Shown here: piece after piece, positions 47,669-55,671 of the stretch
Position numbering within the stretch: the stretch's first letter is position 1
How the letters are laid out: each line of letters starts with the position of its first letter
DNA from: Oscillospiraceae bacterium
GTDB lineage: Bacteria > Bacillota > Clostridia > Oscillospirales > CAG-272
Assembly (NCBI GenBank): GCA_015063625.1
Contig: SVTT01000007.1
Span: forward strand, 12,780-76,779
Length of the DNA stretch: 64,000 nucleotides
Direction: 5' to 3'
The notes under the pieces: model-generated
The model's database searches: none
What the model was told of the DNA's origin: nothing
What the model saw: only the letters and a program-made list of their open reading frames with translations
Made by a program: the position numbers and the translations under genes

Positions 47669-48880
47669 ATGAAATATCTCTTTTTTGATATCGAATGTGC
47701 CAATTGCTATAACAACTGCGCCAAGATCTTCAGCCTTGGCTATGTGATCACCGACGAGAACTTCAATATCCTGCACGACAAGGAGGATGTGCTGATCAAT
47801 CCGCGCGATCGCTTTGACTGGTACGTTGCCAAGAAAATGATGGCATATCCGCGCAGTATTTTTTCGGCTAAGCCGCCGTTCCCCGATTTTTACGAGTTCT
47901 TCAAGACGCTGTTTGAGGATCCCGAAACCATCGTGATCGGCTATGCCGTGACCAACGACGTGCATTTTTTACAGGACGATTGCAAGCGCTACGGTCTGAC
48001 GCCCTTTACCTACCGCTTTTACGACGTGCAGCAGATCTATGCGCGCCAGCCCGAGAACAACACCGCCAAGAATCTTGAGGATTCCTTGCTCTCCTGGTGC
48101 GGCATCGAGGCGGAAAACCTGCACCGCAGCGATGAGGATGCTTATAACACCATGCTGATCCTGAAGGCGATCGCCGCCTACCACGGCACCGATCTGCCGG
48201 GCATCCTTGCAATGTACCCCGAGTGTGGGGGCGAGACCCATGAGTTTACCATGGATTACGGCTGGAAAAAGCCGGAGGGCGAGGCGGGCGCCAAGAAAAA
48301 GCGCCATCGCGGCGGCAAAAAGCACGGCAAGAAGAAGGAGGAGCAGACCTCTGCCGAGCCCGATACCGCCAATATGATGGAGCGCGGCTCGCACAATGCC
48401 GAGCTGTTCGTGCGCTATCTTGATACCGTGAAGCCCAAAAAGACCCGCAAGCCGCCGCTTCTTTCGGGGCATACCGTCACCGTCAGCCTTGGCTATCAGC
48501 GTTACCATTTTAACGAGATGCTCTATCTCGTGCAGATGATCGTCAATGCGGGGGGACGCTATACGCTTTCCACGCGCGATGCCGATACCCTTTATACCTA
48601 CGATTGCGGCGAGGAGGGGGATTCCCGTCTTGCCGTTGCCGAGGAGATGCAGGCGGCGGGCGAGGAGATCGAGATCTATCCCATTAAAATTTTGTTTGAC
48701 ATGCTGGAAACCGGTGAGGTCAAGCTTTCCCGCAAGCCGAAAATGGATCTTTCCTATCTGGAGGATGAGAAAGAGGAAGAGGGAGAACAGATCCTCCCCG
48801 AGGAGATATCATCAGAGGATCGGGAGGATGGCACCGTTGATGCCTACCTTGATCAAAGCGACGATTCTTTGCCGATTTGA
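47669..48880 (+). CDS. DEDDh 3'-5' exonuclease with a possible BRCT-like C-terminal domain
   Basis: FFDIE, ND..FL, HRSDEDA; Lys-rich linker; acidic tail. Confidence 0.75.
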   Translation: MKYLFFDIECANCYNNCAKIFSLGYVITDENFNILHDKEDVLINPRDRFDWYVAKKMMAYPRSIFSAKPPFPDFYEFFKTLFEDPETIVIGYAVTNDVHFLQDDCKRYGLTPFTYRFYDVQQIYARQPENNTAKNLEDSLLSWCGIEAENLHRSDEDAYNTMLILKAIAAYHGTDLPGILAMYPECGGETHEFTMDYGWKKPEGEAGAKKKRHRGGKKHGKKKEEQTSAEPDTANMMERGSHNAELFVRYLDTVKPKKTRKPPLLSGHTVTVSLGYQRYHFNEMLYLVQMIVNAGGRYTLSTRDADTLYTYDCGEEGDSRLAVAEEMQAAGEEIEIYPIKILFDMLETGEVKLSRKPKMDLSYLEDEKEEEGEQILPEEISSEDREDGTVDAYLDQSDDSLPI

Positions 48881-48984
48881 ATGTGTGACGCCCTGTGGCA
48901 CTGCCGCAGGGCGTCTGCTTTTGCTCTGCAAAAAAGAAGCCCACCGTTGACCGTGCGGTCAACGGTGGGCATAAGCTTTTTTGA

Positions 48985-51900
48985 TCAGAAGCTTGCGTTG
49001 TAAAGGATCTTCGCCTTGGGTCTGTCGGTTCCTGCCCAGTGTTTGTGCCAGCCTGCGGGAACGCCAAAGAAGGGCTTCTTGGCGCGGCAGTAAACGGTTG
49101 CCTTGCCGCACTGATCAAAGACCTCCTCGTCGATGGTTCTGACCGACGACGGGATATATGCCTCGCGCAGATTGGAGCAGCGCGCGAAGGCGTGACGCTC
49201 GATGACGGCAAGCCCGTAGGGGAATCTTACGGTTGTCAGCGAGGTGCATTCGGCAAAGCAGAGTGTGCCGATGCTGACCAGTGTGGAGGGGAAGGGCAGT
49301 GCCTGAAGCGAGGTGCAGTGGTAGAAGGACTTGTCGCCGATATGCGTGATACCCTCGGGGAAGGTCACGGTCTTGAGCGAGGTGCAGCCGTCAAAGGCGT
49401 AATTGCCGATCCTCTTGAGCGTGCCGGGGAAGACCACGCTTGTCACAGCGGTGTTGCCGTTGAAGACATAGGAGTCCACCTCGGTCACACCCTCGGGAAT
49501 GACCACATCGCCGCCCTTGCCGCGATAGCGCTTGAGAATGCCGCCCTCAATGGTGAAATCAGCACGGTTGTAAGAGGGTGCACTGCTGCTGACGGGCGCG
49601 GCAGCCCTGGCAACGGCGGGAGCACCGCCCGAGCCCTCTACGTCTGCGCGTACCACCTGTACACGCTCGGGATTCGAACCGAAAATGCTCTTGTCAAAGC
49701 GCAGAGAGGAGGGAACGATGATCTTTTTGAGGTTGTTGCAGCCGCTGAAACAGTAGTTTTCGATCTCGGTCACGTTGATGGGCACGATGAATGCCTCGAT
49801 CGCATTGGCGGAGGAGAAGGCACCCCAGCAAAGCTTCTTTACGGTCGAGGAGAGAGAAACGTCAACGAGGTTCTGCGCATAGGAGAAGGCGTTACCGCGG
49901 ATCTCCACGACGCCCTGGGGAACGGCATAGCCCGTATCGATCTTGCCGGCGGGGTAAGCGATCAGGGAATCCATCTGCTTGTTGAAGAGCACGCCGTCGC
50001 ACTCCGCATAATTGGGGTTGCGCGGGTCAACGCGGATCGCCTGCAGGCTGGTGCACTGGAGGAATGCAGAGGAGCCGATCTCGGTGATGCCGGCGTGGAT
50101 CGAGATCTCCTTCACCTTCTTGCATTCGGAGAAGGCGCTGGAGCCGATCTTGGTGACGGTCTCGGGAATGGTGATCTCCTCGAGGTTGTTACAGTACATG
50201 AAGAGCCCTTCGGGGATCTCCTCAAGCCCTGCGGGAATGTGCAAATGGCAAAGAGCACGGCAGGTCTTGAAGGCGCCCTGGCCGATATAGGTGACGTTAT
50301 CGGTGATGTTCAGCTCCTTGAGCTTCATGCAGCAAAGGAAGGCTTCCTCATCGATGTAGTTGATCGAATCGGGCAGCTTCAGCTCAAGCAGCTCGGAGCA
50401 GAAGCCGAAGGCGTTGGCGCCGATGCGCTTGACACCGTCGGGAACGACCACCTTCTTGAGGGTCTTGTTCTCGGCAAAGACGTTGTCGCCGATCCTGGTA
50501 ATGCCCGCGGGGAGAACGATGCATTCGTCCTTGCCCGTGTAGCCCTTGAGAACGCCGTTGACGATCTGATAGTCGTCGGGATTGGTCACACCCTCCTCAA
50601 GCTCGGGGGGGAGAGCCGCGGCGCCGTCAAAGTAGTCAAACTTGATGTGGCTGACCTCGTCGCCGAAGATGGCGTTGATGTCAAAGCCGTTGGAGATGGT
50701 CACGCGCTTGAGGGAGGTGCAGCCCGCAAAGGCGTTCGAGCCGATCTTGGTTACAGCAGAGGGGATCGTGATCTCGGTGAGTGACGAGCATCCCTTGAAT
50801 GCCGAGCTTTCGATGGTCTTAAGGCTTTCGGGCAGCTCCACCGAGGTCAGCTTGGCACAACCGTTAAAGGCATAACCGCCGATGAATTCCACGCCCTCGC
50901 AGATCGAGATACGGCGCAGGTCGGTGTAGGTCGCAAACGCCTCGGCACAGATCGAGGTGGTGCCGTCGGGCACGATATAGGAAAGTCCCAGCTTGTCGCC
51001 GGCACGGCACAGGCAGTTGCCGATGTAAAGACAGCCGTCGCGCCAGTTGTGCCTGTCATTGAAGTAGGCGGTATCGAGAAAGGCGTCGGCGTGAATGTCC
51101 ACCACGCCGTCGTGCACCGAGACCTTGGAGAGGTTGGTGCAGCCCGCGAAGGCGCGCTGACCCAAGAATTCGATGCTGTCGGGCAAATAGATCTCGGTCA
51201 GCTCGGTGCAGCCCGCAAACTCATCGGTGGAGATGGTGGTCAGCGTGTCGGGGAAGTTGATGCTCTTGATCTTTTTCTTGGCAGAGGATTTCTTGAATGC
51301 CCAGGAGGTGCTCTTTGCACCGTCGGGGATCACCACGTCACCGCCCTCGCCGCGATACTCCTTGATCGTGCCGCGCTGGTCGATGTCAAAGTCATCAAGA
51401 TTCGGCTCGGGGCGCTTTCTCTGCGCACGGGGGGCGTTTTCGGCAACCTTCTTCACCAGCTCCTCTGCGGTAGCGGCAAATTTGTCGCCCGCACAGGTCG
51501 AGCAGAATTTTGCCGTTGCAAGGTTTTCCGCACCGCACTTGACGCAGTATTTGACGGTGGCGGCAGTCTTCTTTTCCTCGGGGTTGATAAAGCGCTTGAC
51601 GAACTCATTGATCTTCTGCGAGGCATCAAAGCTCTTCATATTGACGCCCTGGATCTTGCCGGGAATGCCGGGAATGCGCTCGACCACGTTGCCGTCAAAG
51701 GCGATCATGATGCTGTTCTTTGCCTTCTCCTTGTCATTGAGCATGGCGAAGTAGCGGCTGTATTCATTTTGCACCCAGGGCGTGCGCAGGTAGTCCTCGT
51801 TGCTGCACACCAAAAGGAAGCTCTTTGCCGTGCAGAGGGCGTAGAGGATGAGCGCCTCGTAGTCCTCGCCCACGCGGTCGCCGATATCCTTTTCGGAGTA

Positions 51901-52500
51901 GAAGGGCTTGGCACCGGATGCACTGATGCTGTCGTAAAGCTTCATGGCAAGCATGCTGTCCTGGGTGTAGCCGCCACCCTCCTCGGAAACCTTTACGCAG
52001 ATGAAGGTGTCGTATTTCACACCCTCCTTGGCAAGGTTATAGAACTGGGTGCGGATGTAATCGATCTCTGCGGCACGTGCCTCATATTCCTTTGCCTGCT
52101 CCTCGGTGGCGAAGGAAAGTGCCTTTTGGTAATTCTTGTCCTCGGAGAATTTTTTGGTGCCGAGGTTGTAGCAGATCGCCTGCCAGCGCTGGTTGACGAC
52201 GTCCTTGACGTACTTGATCTGGTTGGCGGCAAGTGCCATGCCAAAGAACGCCTTGGATTCCTCGGGATCCAGCTCTGCTGCCTTCTGGTAGGCGGTGTAA
52301 GCGCGCTCGAATGCCGAGTTGGTCAGCTCGCTGTCGCCGTTATAGAGGTGATGCAGGACCTCATCCGTCTGGTCTTCTTTTGCTAAAATATTGGTGTACG
52401 CGCAGTAACGGCAACGGCAAAGACCGCCCGATGCAGCCGCCATATCCAGCGGTGCTCCGCATGCCGCACATTCAAAAACGCGAACCGTAAGTTCTGCCAT
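48985..52500 (-). CDS. Zn-ribbon/TPR/TIR/Zn-ribbon/BspA-type LRR protein
   Basis: CAAC..CRYC; TPR-like YQKAAELDP; TIR YDTFIC...WVQNEY; CVKC..CSTC; more than 20 I...AF.GC..L..I.IP repeats; own promoter TTGACA-17-TATCAT. Confidence 0.85.
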   Translation of the reverse strand: MAELTVRVFECAACGAPLDMAAASGGLCRCRYCAYTNILAKEDQTDEVLHHLYNGDSELTNSAFERAYTAYQKAAELDPEESKAFFGMALAANQIKYVKDVVNQRWQAICYNLGTKKFSEDKNYQKALSFATEEQAKEYEARAAEIDYIRTQFYNLAKEGVKYDTFICVKVSEEGGGYTQDSMLAMKLYDSISASGAKPFYSEKDIGDRVGEDYEALILYALCTAKSFLLVCSNEDYLRTPWVQNEYSRYFAMLNDKEKAKNSIMIAFDGNVVERIPGIPGKIQGVNMKSFDASQKINEFVKRFINPEEKKTAATVKYCVKCGAENLATAKFCSTCAGDKFAATAEELVKKVAENAPRAQRKRPEPNLDDFDIDQRGTIKEYRGEGGDVVIPDGAKSTSWAFKKSSAKKKIKSINFPDTLTTISTDEFAGCTELTEIYLPDSIEFLGQRAFAGCTNLSKVSVHDGVVDIHADAFLDTAYFNDRHNWRDGCLYIGNCLCRAGDKLGLSYIVPDGTTSICAEAFATYTDLRRISICEGVEFIGGYAFNGCAKLTSVELPESLKTIESSAFKGCSSLTEITIPSAVTKIGSNAFAGCTSLKRVTISNGFDINAIFGDEVSHIKFDYFDGAAALPPELEEGVTNPDDYQIVNGVLKGYTGKDECIVLPAGITRIGDNVFAENKTLKKVVVPDGVKRIGANAFGFCSELLELKLPDSINYIDEEAFLCCMKLKELNITDNVTYIGQGAFKTCRALCHLHIPAGLEEIPEGLFMYCNNLEEITIPETVTKIGSSAFSECKKVKEISIHAGITEIGSSAFLQCTSLQAIRVDPRNPNYAECDGVLFNKQMDSLIAYPAGKIDTGYAVPQGVVEIRGNAFSYAQNLVDVSLSSTVKKLCWGAFSSANAIEAFIVPINVTEIENYCFSGCNNLKKIIVPSSLRFDKSIFGSNPERVQVVRADVEGSGGAPAVARAAAPVSSSAPSYNRADFTIEGGILKRYRGKGGDVVIPEGVTEVDSYVFNGNTAVTSVVFPGTLKRIGNYAFDGCTSLKTVTFPEGITHIGDKSFYHCTSLQALPFPSTLVSIGTLCFAECTSLTTVRFPYGLAVIERHAFARCSNLREAYIPSSVRTIDEEVFDQCGKATVYCRAKKPFFGVPAGWHKHWAGTDRPKAKILYNASF

Positions 52501-52590
52501 GGGAATACCCTCCGTTCGTAAATAAAGTATACATATTAATGATATCACAGAGTGACGGTCTTGTCAACAAATTTGATCGCAAAAATACAA

Positions 52591-52626
52591 AAAGCTCCCT
52601 GTGCGCCATTTGGCGCACAGGGAGCA
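52591..52626 (-). terminator. rlmH terminator
   Basis: GCTCCCTGTGCGCC/GGCGCACAGGGAGC stem with A tract on the + strand. Confidence 0.75.
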
Positions 52627-52637
52627 CATGCCTTTTG

Positions 52638-53117
52638 CTATTTGTGATATTTTCCGCCCGCAAGAATGGAAAGACTGCGGTAAACGGCTTCAAGCAGCAC
52701 CGCCCGCATCATCTGATGGGGGAAGGTGAGCCTTGATACCGAAAGGCGCAGCTGTGCCGCAGCCTTCACGGAGGGGGAAAGCCCGTGTGAGCTGCCGATG
52801 ATCAGGGTGAGCGCACCGTTGGTCTGCATGATATCGGCAAGTCGGTCGGCAAGCTCCTCGGAGGAGAGCTGCTTGCCCTCCACGCAAAGCGCCACAACAA
52901 AGGATCGGGGCAGGAGAGAGGAAAGGATGTCGGCGCCTTCCTTTTCAAGCGCGGCGTCGATCTCTCTCCTTGAGGGGTTCTCGGACAGGCGGTATTCCTT
53001 CAGTTCCGTGATCTCCACCTTGGCATACGCGCCAAGGCGCTTTTGGTATTCGCAGACAGCGTCACGCCAATAGGATTCCTTCAGCGTGCCGAGCGCGATC
53101 AGACGGATATGTAGCAT
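52638..53117 (-). CDS. rlmH: 23S rRNA pseudouridine-1915 N3-methyltransferase
   Basis: IIGSSHGL, TFPHQMMR, GKYHK C-terminus. Confidence 0.95.
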   Translation of the reverse strand: MLHIRLIALGTLKESYWRDAVCEYQKRLGAYAKVEITELKEYRLSENPSRREIDAALEKEGADILSSLLPRSFVVALCVEGKQLSSEELADRLADIMQTNGALTLIIGSSHGLSPSVKAAAQLRLSVSRLTFPHQMMRAVLLEAVYRSLSILAGGKYHK

Positions 53118-53130
53118 GATATCGTTCCTT

Positions 53131-53937
53131 TCAGAGCTCCGTGGCATGCACGGGATCGGCGGCGCGCACGCGGACGTCACAGCCTGCCAGTGCCGCGCGC
53201 ACCTCGGAGAGTGCCAGCTCGGGGAGATTGTTGGTTTCCGAAAGGTGGGCGAGCAGCAGGCGTTTCATGCCACAAGTGGCAAGACGGGTGCAAAAAGCCG
53301 CACAGTCGGTGTTGGAAAGATGTCCGTGACGCGAGGCGATCCGCTTCTTCAAAAAATAAGGGTAAGGACCTGTTTTCAGCATCTCTTCATCGTGGTTGCA
53401 TTCAAGCACCACTGCCTCGCAGCCAAAAAGGCCCTCCTCGACCGCGGGAGTGATGCCCCCAAGGTCGGTGGCATAGCCGATCGAACGGCCCTTGCAGGAG
53501 ATGCGGTAGCCGACGCTGCCCGCACTGTCGTGCAGGGTAGGGAAGGAGGTGACGGTAAAGGGACCGACCGTCAGGGCAAAGACAGGGGGATGAATGACAA
53601 GGTGCTCTCCCATCCCCTCGCCAAGCTCGGCGATCAGCCGTTCTGCCGAGGCGGCGGTGGTGTGCACGGGCACGGGGTGATGCTTCAAAAAAACGGCCAG
53701 CGCCGAGGTGTGATCGCGGTGCTCGTGCGTGAGAAGGATCGCCGAGACCGTATCGGGCTCGGTGCCCGCCTCCTGCAGTGCTGCGGTCAGCGCCCTTGCC
53801 GAGCGCCCCGCATCGATCAGGAGGGCAGTGCCCTCGCAGGTCAGAAGCGCCGCGTTGCCGGTCGAGCCGGAATAGAGCATACGAAGAGAATAGGGCGCCG
53901 AGGACGGCGCCCCAATGGAACGGATTTCGGTATTCAT
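53131..53937 (-). CDS. MBL-fold hydrolase, YycJ/WalJ-like
   Basis: SGSTGN, THEHRDH, HDS, ECNHD, GHLSN, HLSETNN. Confidence 0.9.
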   Translation of the reverse strand: MNTEIRSIGAPSSAPYSLRMLYSGSTGNAALLTCEGTALLIDAGRSARALTAALQEAGTEPDTVSAILLTHEHRDHTSALAVFLKHHPVPVHTTAASAERLIAELGEGMGEHLVIHPPVFALTVGPFTVTSFPTLHDSAGSVGYRISCKGRSIGYATDLGGITPAVEEGLFGCEAVVLECNHDEEMLKTGPYPYFLKKRIASRHGHLSNTDCAAFCTRLATCGMKRLLLAHLSETNNLPELALSEVRAALAGCDVRVRAADPVHATEL

Positions 53938-53938
53938 G

Positions 53939-54367
53939 TTAGTTCCTCAGGAAAAGATCAATGATAAAGAGGTCGACCGCATCGATCAAAAAGGTCAGCA
54001 CAAGAGGAAAGATCACAGTCAGCATCCATCTGGAGCGCGTCAGTCGCCTTTTGCCTTCCTGCAAAAAGGCATCCTTTTTTTCCTCGCTCCAATCGTCGGG
54101 CAGCTGCTCTCTTTCGACCCCGTTTTGGTAGAAAAATCGGTTGACGATGAGAAACGCGACCGTGAATCCGAGCAGGATCGCCAGGTAGGCGATCATCACC
54201 GCAAAGGCAAAAAAGGTGCGGTCGGTCATCTCGGCGTAAAGGAGCGATATGCGGTAAAGGCAGAAGAAAAGAAGCGTGTTGATGCAAAGCAGGGCGAGAT
54301 ATCGCTTTTTGTCGCTTCGGTTACCCACCTCGGGGGTGGAGGATCGGTCCGGCCGTTTTTTTGTCAT
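53939..54367 (-). CDS. Hypothetical membrane protein (three TM helices)
   Basis: Hydrophobic segments; lies between co-oriented genes. Confidence 0.7.
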   Translation of the reverse strand: MTKKRPDRSSTPEVGNRSDKKRYLALLCINTLLFFCLYRISLLYAEMTDRTFFAFAVMIAYLAILLGFTVAFLIVNRFFYQNGVEREQLPDDWSEEKKDAFLQEGKRRLTRSRWMLTVIFPLVLTFLIDAVDLFIIDLFLRN

Positions 54368-54387
54368 ATCGGATCCCCTTGCGGCAA

Positions 54388-55671
54388 TCAGCAGACGAGA
54401 GTTGCGCCCTCGCCGCGAATACGCAGAACCATGCAGGAGCCCTCGCCGAACACGCTCTCCATGAGTGCGGCGAAGCCCTTTACGTCCTCTGCTCTGACAA
54501 ACGCCTGCACGGTGCCGGCAAAGCCACCGCCGTGAACGCGCCACGCCGCACGCTTGTCCGAAAGATAGCGCTCGGCAAGGCAAAGAGCGAGGGAAAGGCC
54601 CTGCTCAGCCACGTTCTTGGTGGTGTAGACGTTCTGGAGATAGCAGAAGGAGGAGCGTCCCGAGGCGATCACGTTGTCGAAGAAGGCGTCAAGGTCGCCT
54701 GCCTTCAGCGCGGCGCTTTGCAGGGCAACACGGCGGTTTTCCGCAAAGAAGTGCAACGCACGGAGGATGGCACGGTCGCCCACACGCTCGCGCAGAGTGG
54801 GAATGGCGACGATCACGGCGTCCTCGTCGGTCTCGCGGAGCACGGATTTGCCCATGGCGGCGGCGACAGCCTTCATTTCGGTGGGCACTGCGGCGTAGTC
54901 GGGGGTGAGATCGGCGTGGTTGCCGCCCGTGTTTACGATGCAAAGGTTGTAGCCGGCGGCGGTGATGTCGAAGTCGATCTTTTCGATCACGGGGGCGCCC
55001 TCGGTTTCAAAGTCGATGGCAACGATGCCGCCCACGGCACAGGCGGTCTGGTCCATCAGACCGCAGGGCTTGCCGAAAAATTCGTTTTCGGCATACTGCG
55101 CGATCTTGGCGATCTCCACGTTGTCGATCCTGCCGTCGTTGTAGAGATGGTTTTCGATATTGCCGATCATATCCTCAAACGCTGCCGAGGAGGAAAGTCC
55201 CGAGCCCTTGAGAACGCTGGAGGTGGTATAAGCCACAAATCCCCCCGTACGGTATCCGTTTTTCGCTAATCCCGCGCACATTCCCGCAATGATGGCATCC
55301 GAGCGTCCGAAGCGCTCCTCGCGAGGAGCCTTGAAGCCGGCAAGGTCAACGGTGTCCTCGGGGAAGCCCTCGGATTTCACGCGGATCACACCGTCCTCTG
55401 TGGCAGAGGCGACGGCAATGATGTCAAGGTCGATCGAGGCGGCAACGACGCGACCGCGGTTGTGGTCGGTGTGATTGCCGGAAAGCTCACTGCGCCCCGC
55501 CACCGAGAACAGGCGGATGTCGCGGTCCTTACCGTAAAGCGCTTCAAATTCGGCGATCGCCTTTTTGTAGCGCTCCTTTTGCGCCGTAATGGCATCGGCA
55601 CCGTAAAGTGCACCAAGGCGCGCGTCCAGCGCACCGTTTTTCAGTTCCTTCATCATGTCTGCTGTTTTCAT
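54388..55671 (-). CDS. galK: Galactokinase
   Basis: GR.ELSGNHTDH, GSGLSSSA, CGLMDQ, GGGFAG. Confidence 0.9.
   Translation of the reverse strand: MKTADMMKELKNGALDARLGALYGADAITAQKERYKKAIAEFEALYGKDRDIRLFSVAGRSELSGNHTDHNRGRVVAASIDLDIIAVASATEDGVIRVKSEGFPEDTVDLAGFKAPREERFGRSDAIIAGMCAGLAKNGYRTGGFVAYTTSSVLKGSGLSSSAAFEDMIGNIENHLYNDGRIDNVEIAKIAQYAENEFFGKPCGLMDQTACAVGGIVAIDFETEGAPVIEKIDFDITAAGYNLCIVNTGGNHADLTPDYAAVPTEMKAVAAAMGKSVLRETDEDAVIVAIPTLRERVGDRAILRALHFFAENRRVALQSAALKAGDLDAFFDNVIASGRSSFCYLQNVYTTKNVAEQGLSLALCLAERYLSDKRAAWRVHGGGFAGTVQAFVRAEDVKGFAALMESVFGEGSCMVLRIRGEGATLVC

Follow-up and report, generated by a model that had tools for sequence, protein, structure and literature searches.

A TIR-LRR protein without transmembrane helices, encoded beside rlmH, belongs to a very large family of gut Clostridia

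TIR domains form a link between the immune systems of bacteria, plants and animals. To our knowledge, the characterised bacterial TIR proteins (those of Thoeris, SPARTA and TIR-STING, the CBASS/Pycsar effectors and the STAND proteins) all need a partner, a nucleotide signal or an NTPase switch. Here we describe a gene, located on a 64,000-nucleotide stretch of DNA from an Oscillospiraceae bacterium (hereafter the window; part of contig SVTT01000007.1; positions are numbered from the first nucleotide of the window throughout), that encodes a TIR domain joined to bacterial leucine-rich repeats (LRRs) of the BspA type. The coding sequence occupies 48985..52500 on the minus strand (1171 aa plus stop, from open reading frame (ORF) scan and translation); the protein is named P0001 and residue numbers refer to it, while its genome of 1.76 Mb is named G000. 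P0001 is a member, devoid of transmembrane (TM) helices, of a very large protein family of gut Clostridia whose domain logic is that of innate immune receptors in animals and plants. What is new in this architecture is a putative TIR sensor-effector that has no NTPase, nucleotide-signal or Argonaute partner and is fused to BspA-type LRRs.

The TIR domain spans residues 163-310 (51571..52014, minus strand), as delimited by Pfam TIR_2 and Foldseek. Pfam TIR_2 (PF13676) matches residues 180-291 with 31.6 bits against a cutoff of 28, and scores 36.7 bits in a six-frame search of the genome. In profile searches against the PDB, the whole N-terminal module is dominated by a single TPR motif, and a TIR domain (RUN1) is reached only at E 0.07; restricting the profile to the TIR domain improves RUN1 to E 0.014. 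Since similarity to solved TIR domains is thus marginal at the sequence level, a fold search was needed to settle the assignment. An alignment of 27 N-terminal modules (A1) served as the basis for an AlphaFold (AF2) model of residues 1-312, which has a predicted local distance difference test score (pLDDT) of 91.3 and a predicted template-modelling score (pTM) of 0.87. The top PDB matches of this model in Foldseek are almost all TIR domains (SARM1, AbTir, MyD88, MAL, TIR-STING, L6, RPP1 and SPARTA TIR-APAZ), with a probability of 1.0 and target-normalised template-modelling scores of 0.55-0.66. Taking profile match and predicted fold together, we regard the TIR assignment as solid.

Glu246, encoded by codon 51763..51765 (minus strand) within the motif WVQNEY, lies at the position that is established as that of the catalytic Glu of TIR NADases (cf. 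the discussion in PMC7075850). In the profile alignment, the segment W242-V-x-N-E246 places E246 opposite the Glu of RUN1 'WCLDE' and of TIR-STING 'WSKFE'. This Glu is invariant in A1 and is kept in 212 of the 217 family sequences on which all our tallies of Glu, TM helices and LRR_5 are based. Around the TIR core and the active-site helix, the columns F166, C168, K170, P199-E203, Y214-A216 and W242-R249 of A1 are also invariant.

The TIR domain is preceded by an N-terminal Zn ribbon at residues 9-38 (52387..52476, minus strand), whose four Cys (C11, C14, C30 and C33) are invariant in 27/27 family members of A1. In the model of residues 1-312 its beta strands lie at 27-38, and the ribbon has weak profile similarity to the Zn ribbons of RNA polymerase subunit P and L37Ae. 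TPR-like helices, a beta hairpin and a long helix follow at residues 46-159 (52024..52365, minus strand). The model resolves this part into TPR-like helices (46-92), a hairpin (95-110) and long helices (122-158), ahead of the alpha/beta domain of flavodoxin-like TIR fold at 163-310. Pfam gives a weak TPR match at residues 63-91, and TPR matches were also obtained in the PDB profile search. In the model, residues 46-159 are predicted to pack against the TIR domain as one compact module. A second Zn ribbon (CVKCG...CSTC) is probable at residues 318-336 (51493..51549, minus strand). It is the only weak point of the domain order: it rests on the CxxC...CxxC sequence, its Zn_Ribbon_1 score of 23.1 bits falls just under the Pfam cutoff of 25, and its pLDDT is low. 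The second ribbon is kept in homologues and multiplied in some of them.

The remainder of P0001 consists of BspA-type LRRs, matched by Pfam LRR_5 (PF13306) in six stretches with an E-value of 4.6e-138. Three blocks can be distinguished on the minus strand, each beginning with its own N-terminal cap: block 1 (residues 362-625, 50626..51417, cap DFDIDQRGTIKEYRGEGGDVVIPDG), block 2 (residues 638-954, 49639..50589, cap DYQIVNGVLKGYTGKDECIVLPAG) and block 3 (residues 975-1171, 48988..49578, cap DFTIEGGILKRYRGKGGDVVIPEG and a C-terminal PAGWHKHW motif). The cap motifs begin at residues 370, 643 and 981, the latter two being also pattern-matched. After the caps, at least 20 repeats with a period of 23 residues are found, matched by a DNA periodicity of 69 nt (23 aa) that was noted for block 2. 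The closest solved structures are 4gt6 of F. prausnitzii (Foldseek E 3e-17), 4h09 of E. ventriosum, 4fs7 of B. ovatus, PcpA and TpLRR; the closest LRR structures are thus BspA-type cell-surface proteins of gut bacteria. NCBIfam gave just partial LRR matches to adhesin models, far under their cutoffs.

A model of the full-length protein has a pLDDT of 84.9 and a pTM of only 0.38. It contains four confident units (7-307, 362-625, 638-954 and 975-1171), separated by low-confidence linkers at 308-361, 626-637 and 955-974, and it predicts no fixed contact between the TIR domain and the LRRs. The LRR part is therefore modelled as three solenoids that are independent of each other and flexibly tethered. 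Neither a TM helix nor a signal peptide was detected in P0001, the highest 19-residue Kyte-Doolittle window (1.57) lying in a core strand of the TIR domain. The export signals and surface anchors that characterise BspA-type surface proteins are likewise absent from P0001, and its N-terminus is a Zn ribbon.

These results bear out, in every detail examined, the architecture proposed in the original prediction, which was made from the sequence alone. The TIR call holds, with TIR_2 above its cutoff, a confident AlphaFold model and Foldseek matches to the TIR domains of SARM1, AbTir and MyD88; the Glu retained in WVQNEY is at exactly the predicted codon, 51763-51765, and corresponds in the alignment to the catalytic residue of RUN1. 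The ORF and Kyte-Doolittle scans agree with a product of 1171 aa lacking signal peptide and TM helix, and both the cap motifs and the three modelled solenoids bear out three separately capped BspA-type LRR blocks. The proposed order of Zn ribbon, TPR-like helices, TIR domain, second Zn ribbon and three LRR blocks is also recovered, with the second ribbon as its weakest point.

The N-terminal module of P0001, of ∼310 aa, defines an unnamed family that we delineated in this analysis as the ZnR-TPR-TIR module. Its motifs are CxxC...CxxC, FICVKV, PF[YF]SE, DYEALILYAL and WVxNEY, all of which are present in P0001, whose score with the profile of the family is 483.6 bits. When residues 1-365 were used in a word-indexed search, more than 211 proteins with this module were identified. 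An exhaustive profile search of the representatives of clusters at 50% identity yielded 3,925 matches at E<=1e-30, a number that rises to 8,002 at E<=1e-3; throughout this search the module occupies the very N-terminal end of proteins of 420-2,618 aa. By contrast with this fixed start, the C-termini vary across the family and include LRR_5, TPR, Flg_new, FNIP, RCC1, DUF6273, M23 peptidase, CBM25 and L7/L12-C. Database names for members are just 'TIR domain-containing protein' or 'leucine-rich repeat protein', neither PADLOC nor NCBIfam has a model for the family, and we found no published description of a bacterial TIR-BspA-LRR family in a literature search whose coverage excluded most subscription journals. 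The original prediction called the architecture uncharacterised, which still stands insofar as we found no description of it; however, thousands of clusters show that it is not rare.

Members without TM helices account for 106/217 of the family sequences, and LRR_5 is present in 97 of these 106, which indicates that a soluble TIR-LRR protein is a stable and common form. Judged from predicted topology and domain content, it is also the commonest single architecture in the family. The other 111 members carry from one to more than three TM helices after the module, and in all 17 TM-bearing members with LRR_5 the LRRs follow the last helix. In the single-pass proteins P0004 and P0007, a Lys-rich flank precedes the helix and an Asp-rich flank follows it. 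From these flanks, the TIR domain is predicted to be inside and the LRRs outside the cell in TM-bearing members. Such a membrane form, similar in style to Toll-like receptors (TLRs), is present among the close relatives of P0001, as in P0004, whose module is 63% identical. The colinear homologue P0002 is 78% identical to P0001 in the N-terminal module and 57% overall; the LRR part thus diverges faster than the TIR module.

The named records that carry the module come from gut isolates and from metagenome-assembled genomes (MAGs) of gut origin. They comprise Oscillospiraceae SIG661 (four copies, 63-68% identity), MAGs of 'Christensenella'/Christensenellaceae, Ca. Coproplasma and Pumilibacter muris, besides MAGs obtained from the gut of rabbit, mouse, chicken, sheep and human. 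Many carriers have 4-6 copies, some of them in tandem. Within the genus of the window, the number of TIR_2 genes per genome ranges from 0 to 8; such patchy presence and variable copy number in one genus are typical of conflict genes. G000 itself has one TIR_2 hit. The original prediction had suggested surveying homologues for LRR swapping and positional variability. In this survey, C-termini, copy number and chromosomal site all vary, whereas an identical P0001 protein was recovered in the same context in 5 independent metagenome contigs.

Two loci with family members deserve a separate description. Contig C19 of G000 carries a second paralogue (L115:6388-8244(+)), which is much diverged, has lost the Glu (LTNLYSRF) and is fused to DUF6273. 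The gene directly upstream of it (L115:2605-6315(+)) encodes 1236 aa, with LRR_5 and three TM helices, and downstream, on the opposite strand, lies a gene for a Zn-ribbon-Trypsin_2 protease (L115:8653-9576(-)); this paralogue and its neighbours could represent the family architecture in 'split' form. A local paralogue expansion is seen on a contig from a human-gut Clostridia MAG (L041:140-9324), where family genes for 1284, 520 and 1205 aa, all three TM-less, are arranged in tandem.

The reading that best accommodates these data, and to which we assign roughly an even chance, is that P0001 is a ligand-activated one-component NADase sensor-effector. The one-component intracellular sensor-effector put forward in the original prediction is consistent with the data and plausible. 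This reading is favoured by the Glu kept in 212/217 members, by the combination of a conserved TIR module with varying C-terminal repeats, by a copy number of 0-8 and by the lack of a recurring partner. On this last point, all-against-all clustering of 266 neighbours from 46 loci revealed no conserved partner in more than 5 loci. According to the mechanism that we propose, the LRR blocks would recognise a ligand within the cell, which might be a multimeric protein from a phage or another invader, and binding would gather the TIR modules of several P0001 molecules; the flexible linkers between the four folded units (pTM 0.38) suit such ligand-driven clustering. This oligomerisation would create a composite TIR-TIR active site, as in SARM1, AbTir and plant TIR-NB-LRR (TNL) resistosomes, which would hydrolyse nicotinamide adenine dinucleotide (NAD+). 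Before the ligand is bound, the N-terminal Zn-ribbon/TPR part probably keeps the TIR domain inactive. The output would be a direct depletion of NAD+ leading to growth arrest or to an abortive response, and P0001 may have an anti-phage role. We consider NAD+ depletion the likeliest output because there is no adjacent or recurring partner and no SIR2-type ThsA in G000.

Several observations weigh against this proposal. The Glu is an imperfect predictor of NADase activity and is frequent also in the TIR domains of TLR1/2/6/10 (PMC7075850), and the sequence similarity of P0001 to solved TIR domains is marginal (E 0.014). An intracellular ligand is an assumption, because BspA-type LRRs are otherwise cell-surface domains and are predicted to lie outside the cell in the TM-bearing members of the family itself. 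The identity of the protein in the 5 metagenome contigs means that strain-level diversification of the LRRs is not visible. Defence annotation points in the same direction: the search with PADLOC, one of the two defence-system tools that the original prediction had named as a check, retrieved 0 families for P0001 at E<=1, ThsB included, and P0001 is thus not a catalogued defence protein. Moreover, no obvious defence-island signal was seen among 133 neighbours from 23 loci, in a comparison made without a matched random-gene control; the PADLOC tally of these neighbours gave scattered matches only, and their Pfam tally was mainly housekeeping.

These observations also bear on a different role for the TIR domain, namely that it serves in assembly or as an adaptor and has no catalytic function, the classical assumption for MyD88 and MAL. 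P0001 would then cluster cellular partners bound by its LRRs, for example components of the envelope or of the division machinery, and its TM-bearing relatives would organise surface proteins from inside. The adaptor TIR domains of MyD88 and MAL do stand beside enzymes among the structural matches of the module; the M23 peptidase, Flg_new and CBM25 domains that follow the TM helix in many members suggest envelope biology rather than immunity, and the housekeeping neighbourhoods and the missing PADLOC match fit as well. However, the Glu and the W-V-x-N-E-Y motif are essentially invariant in a family that is otherwise just 40-50% identical, which argues for selection on catalysis, and the sole paralogue in G000 that lacks the Glu is also much more diverged overall. 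We therefore consider a purely structural role rather unlikely, while ranking it first among the alternatives.

Even if the TIR domain is an enzyme, its product could act at a distance. Bacterial and plant TIR domains with this Glu commonly make cyclic ADP-ribose isomers (Thoeris ThsB, AbTir and plant TIRs), and AbTir is among the best fold matches of P0001. P0001 may thus make a signalling nucleotide, such as a cyclic ADP-ribose isomer, for a separately encoded effector, as in Thoeris. Against this stand the absence of a recurring neighbour of family members and of any SIR2_2/ThsA-type gene in G000, where ThsA of the Macro/SLOG type was not searched separately; furthermore, the ThsB models of PADLOC are unmatched and G000 has a single TIR_2 hit. 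Such a division of labour appears distinctly improbable.

A third possibility concerns the location of the protein. The resemblance of the LRR blocks to surface proteins of gut bacteria (4gt6, 4h09, 4fs7 and PcpA) and the fact that the host organisms are gut commensals would be compatible with a non-classical export of P0001, which would act either as a BspA-type adhesin at the surface or as a Tcp-like TIR effector directed against TLR signalling of the host. The absence of a signal peptide is also a trait of the known Tcp proteins of bacteria, and the gene for TirS of S. aureus is carried by a staphylococcal cassette chromosome (SCC) element beside rlmH. Nevertheless, P0001 lacks a sorting signal as well as a signal peptide and a TM helix, and no secretion genes were found among the annotated neighbours. 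The two Cys4 Zn ribbons and a TIR domain that would need cytoplasmic NAD+ speak for a cytoplasmic protein, and in the TM-bearing P0004 and P0007 the TIR module is on the predicted cytoplasmic side. An exported P0001 is therefore very unlikely.

The gene itself appears to be a monocistronic, self-contained transcription unit with its own predicted promoter and terminator. Read 5' to 3' on the minus strand, the order is the rlmH stop (52638), the rlmH terminator, the promoter, the ribosome-binding site, the coding sequence and its own terminator. The intrinsic terminator of rlmH lies between the two genes (52594..52625, 14-bp stem and T run). It is followed by a predicted sigma-70-type promoter at 52539..52567 (TTGACA, 17 nt, TG-extended TATCAT, 11/12 matches), by a ribosome-binding site GGAGGG read from the sequence at 52508..52513, 7 nt before the ATG, and, beyond the coding sequence, by the intrinsic terminator of the TIR-LRR gene at 48939..48970 (14-bp stem and T run). 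The open frame extends from 48985 to 52548 on the minus strand, and initiation at the ATG at 52500 yields 1171 aa. We take this ATG as the true start because GGAGGG and the promoter precede it and because homologues begin at the same residue, family members aligning from their own residues 2-7 onward in the profile search.

The neighbourhood is of a housekeeping nature on both sides, and the GC content of the TIR-LRR gene matches that of its flanks. On one side lie rlmH (52638..53114, minus strand; SPOUT methyltransferase, Pfam SPOUT_MTase 1.2e-47), a core flank that is directly upstream of the TIR-LRR gene and is present in 26/26 relatives, and then genes for a metallo-beta-lactamase (MBL)-fold protein, galactokinase and HprK. 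On the other side lie a DEDDh-type exonuclease-like gene (47669..48880, plus strand), the second core flank, which is convergent with rlmH and has a separate terminator, and, further out, Fe-ADH_2, MFS and GDPD genes. The exonuclease-like protein is 72-79% identical in five relatives, always after Fe-ADH_2 where this is visible; it is DEDDh/RNase T-like and has a long Lys/Glu-rich, low-complexity C-terminal half.

Two further genes on the rlmH side were noted. The MBL-fold gene upstream of rlmH (53131-53937(-)) has a weak Pfam match to Apyc1 (anti-Pycsar; 22.4 bits against a cutoff of 50). Since it lies beside rlmH across most of the genus, it most likely encodes a YycJ/WalJ-like hydrolase and not an anti-defence protein. 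A 214-aa ORF (53939-54583(-)) without Pfam match overlaps the 3' part of the galactokinase gene (54388-55671(-)) by ∼195 nt. It is conserved across the genus, and metagenome gene calls give 142 aa, so that its true start is probably further downstream.

The three closest homologues of P0001 are encoded at three other housekeeping loci that have no common neighbour. The two closest of them (P0002 and P0003, in contexts L013 and L014) flank the same syntenic block of ∼9 genes from opposite ends; the block, which comprises genes for Trypsin_2, HTH_5, HMA, a P-type ATPase, a pseudouridine synthase, SmpB, SpoIIR, asparaginase, DAPDH and FBP aldolase, is inverted relative to the TIR gene, an arrangement that could stem from recombination between paralogues. 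At other family loci, up to 5 of the 46 (L045:3201-6301, L061:11514-13733 and L071:1079-2253), common neighbours do occur, namely a protein with a Zn ribbon and SPFH/Band_7, a small coiled-coil protein and AAA-type ATPases, and the association may be specific to a sub-family. No match to the module was found in INPHARED phages, PLSDB plasmids or IMG/VR viral contigs.

The interval between rlmH and the exonuclease-like gene, which are convergent in six genomes of the genus, differs from genome to genome. In G004 and G002, they are direct neighbours, separated by gaps of ∼65 and ∼12 bp, respectively, and by a single hairpin terminator. In G000, the interval holds the P0001 gene, and in G013 a paralogue that is just 28% identical and has the opposite orientation. 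The cargo consists of genes for a lipoprotein, an aldolase-like protein and a DeoR-like protein in G005, and, in G010 (L025:9440-10400), of a short XRE-type helix-turn-helix gene and of a gene for a small membrane protein that has a strong promoter of its own. Directly downstream of rlmH in G001 (L023:3584-5869(-)), we found a gene for a 761-aa protein with TIR_2 (45 bits, 177-292) followed by TPR_10/TPR_12, which is unrelated to the Zn-ribbon module family. Large secreted proteins are encoded downstream of rlmH in G003 and G008. The junction is thus truly variable, and TIR genes have entered it on at least three separate occasions.

The mechanism of this variability does not resemble that of SCC elements. 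No recombinase was found among the ten annotated neighbour proteins, ∼5 kb on either side, and no att direct repeats flank the insert or occur in the 3' end of rlmH, where only short repeats at chance level were seen; the rlmH stop and terminator are intact, and the insert is one gene. Neighbour annotation and repeat search thereby bear out the earlier observation that no partner gene, recombinase or att duplication is visible. An SCC-like element integrated site-specifically at the rlmH 3' end is a largely refuted explanation with hardly any remaining probability: the junction does vary, being empty in G004 and G002 and holding three different TIR genes in three species, but recombinase and flanking direct repeats are lacking, rlmH and its own terminator precede the gene intact, GC matches the flanks, the single-gene insert has clean promoter and terminator boundaries, the closest homologues sit at three other chromosomal sites, and the module is missing from the phage, plasmid and viral-contig sets. 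It is more economical to view the junction as a permissive gap where two core genes converge. The part of the original prediction that described the rlmH 3' end as a hotspot is thus only weakly sustained: the cargo of the junction does vary in the genus and includes three TIR genes, whereas SCC machinery and att sites are lacking and the closest homologues lie elsewhere.

Beyond this locus, we tentatively suggest, as a view that is more doubtful than the proposal for P0001, that gut Clostridia hold a large, unrecognised, germline-encoded repertoire of TIR receptors, with membrane and soluble branches built on one catalytic module. If this is true, the membrane branch would be a prokaryotic counterpart of TLRs, in which NAD+ cleavage would report extracellular ligands such as adsorbing phage or neighbouring cells, while the soluble branch, including P0001, would work like a nucleotide-binding receptor with leucine-rich repeats (NLR) minus the NTPase switch. 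Paralogue numbers of 0-8 together with sensor swapping would then constitute a bacterial pattern-recognition repertoire, and no receptor-effector design seen so far would be simpler than a catalytic TIR domain fused directly to variable binders. With its soluble and membrane forms, the family offers a direct test of whether ligand-induced proximity alone switches on a TIR NADase, and the family bears on the origin of the pairing of LRR and TIR in TLRs and TNLs. In any case, it is a gene family that is abundant, and was so far unknown, among gut Clostridia with small genomes (Oscillospirales and Christensenellales MAGs); should the TIR domain be non-catalytic, a large, unexplained class of envelope-associated proteins would still have been uncovered.

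Compared with staphylococcal SCC at rlmH (orfX), the locus has in common the variable cargo immediately downstream of rlmH; however, there is here no Ccr and no att site, the cargo is a single gene, and the insert lies beyond the rlmH terminator and not in the 3' end. With Thoeris, P0001 shares a bacterial TIR domain with the catalytic Glu and a possible role in conflict, but it has no PADLOC ThsB match, no adjacent ThsA and no conserved operon, and it is far larger than ThsB and carries its own putative sensor. The BspA-type surface proteins (4gt6, 4h09, 4fs7, PcpA and TpLRR) have the same LRR_5 repeat and the same organisation in capped blocks, whereas P0001 is devoid of signal peptide and anchor and is fused to a cytoplasmic TIR module.

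The likeness to TIR NADases (SARM1, AbTir, TIR-STING, SPARTA TIR-APAZ, RUN1 and RPP1) extends to the fold, to the W-x-x-x-E helix motif of the alphaC region and to the fusion of the TIR domain with a separate sensing part. P0001 differs by its marginal sequence similarity (Pfam 31.6 bits; RUN1 E 0.014), by an activity that is predicted only, by the absence of an ARM/SAM, STING, APAZ/Ago or NB-ARC partner domain, and by the setting of its TIR domain in a module that is peculiar to the family and also contains an N-terminal Zn ribbon and TPR-like helices. Plant TIR-NB-LRR proteins and the bacterial NLR-like/Avs STAND proteins have in common with P0001 an N-terminal TIR domain, a variable C-terminal repeat sensor, several paralogues and an intracellular location. 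In P0001, however, Pfam detects no STAND, NB-ARC or NACHT NTPase, residues 308-361 being a short Zn ribbon and linker, and compared with plant TNLs its LRRs are of the bacterial BspA/LRR_5 type and form three separate solenoids. Finally, TLRs share the pair of LRR and TIR. P0001 has no TM helix and is therefore not a single-pass receptor; the order in the family is reversed, with the TIR domain N-terminal, and the LRRs are of another type, so that no homology is implied beyond the domain level. It is in P0004, P0007 and P0008, with LRRs predicted outside, one TM helix and the TIR domain inside, that the family comes closest to the layout of a TLR.

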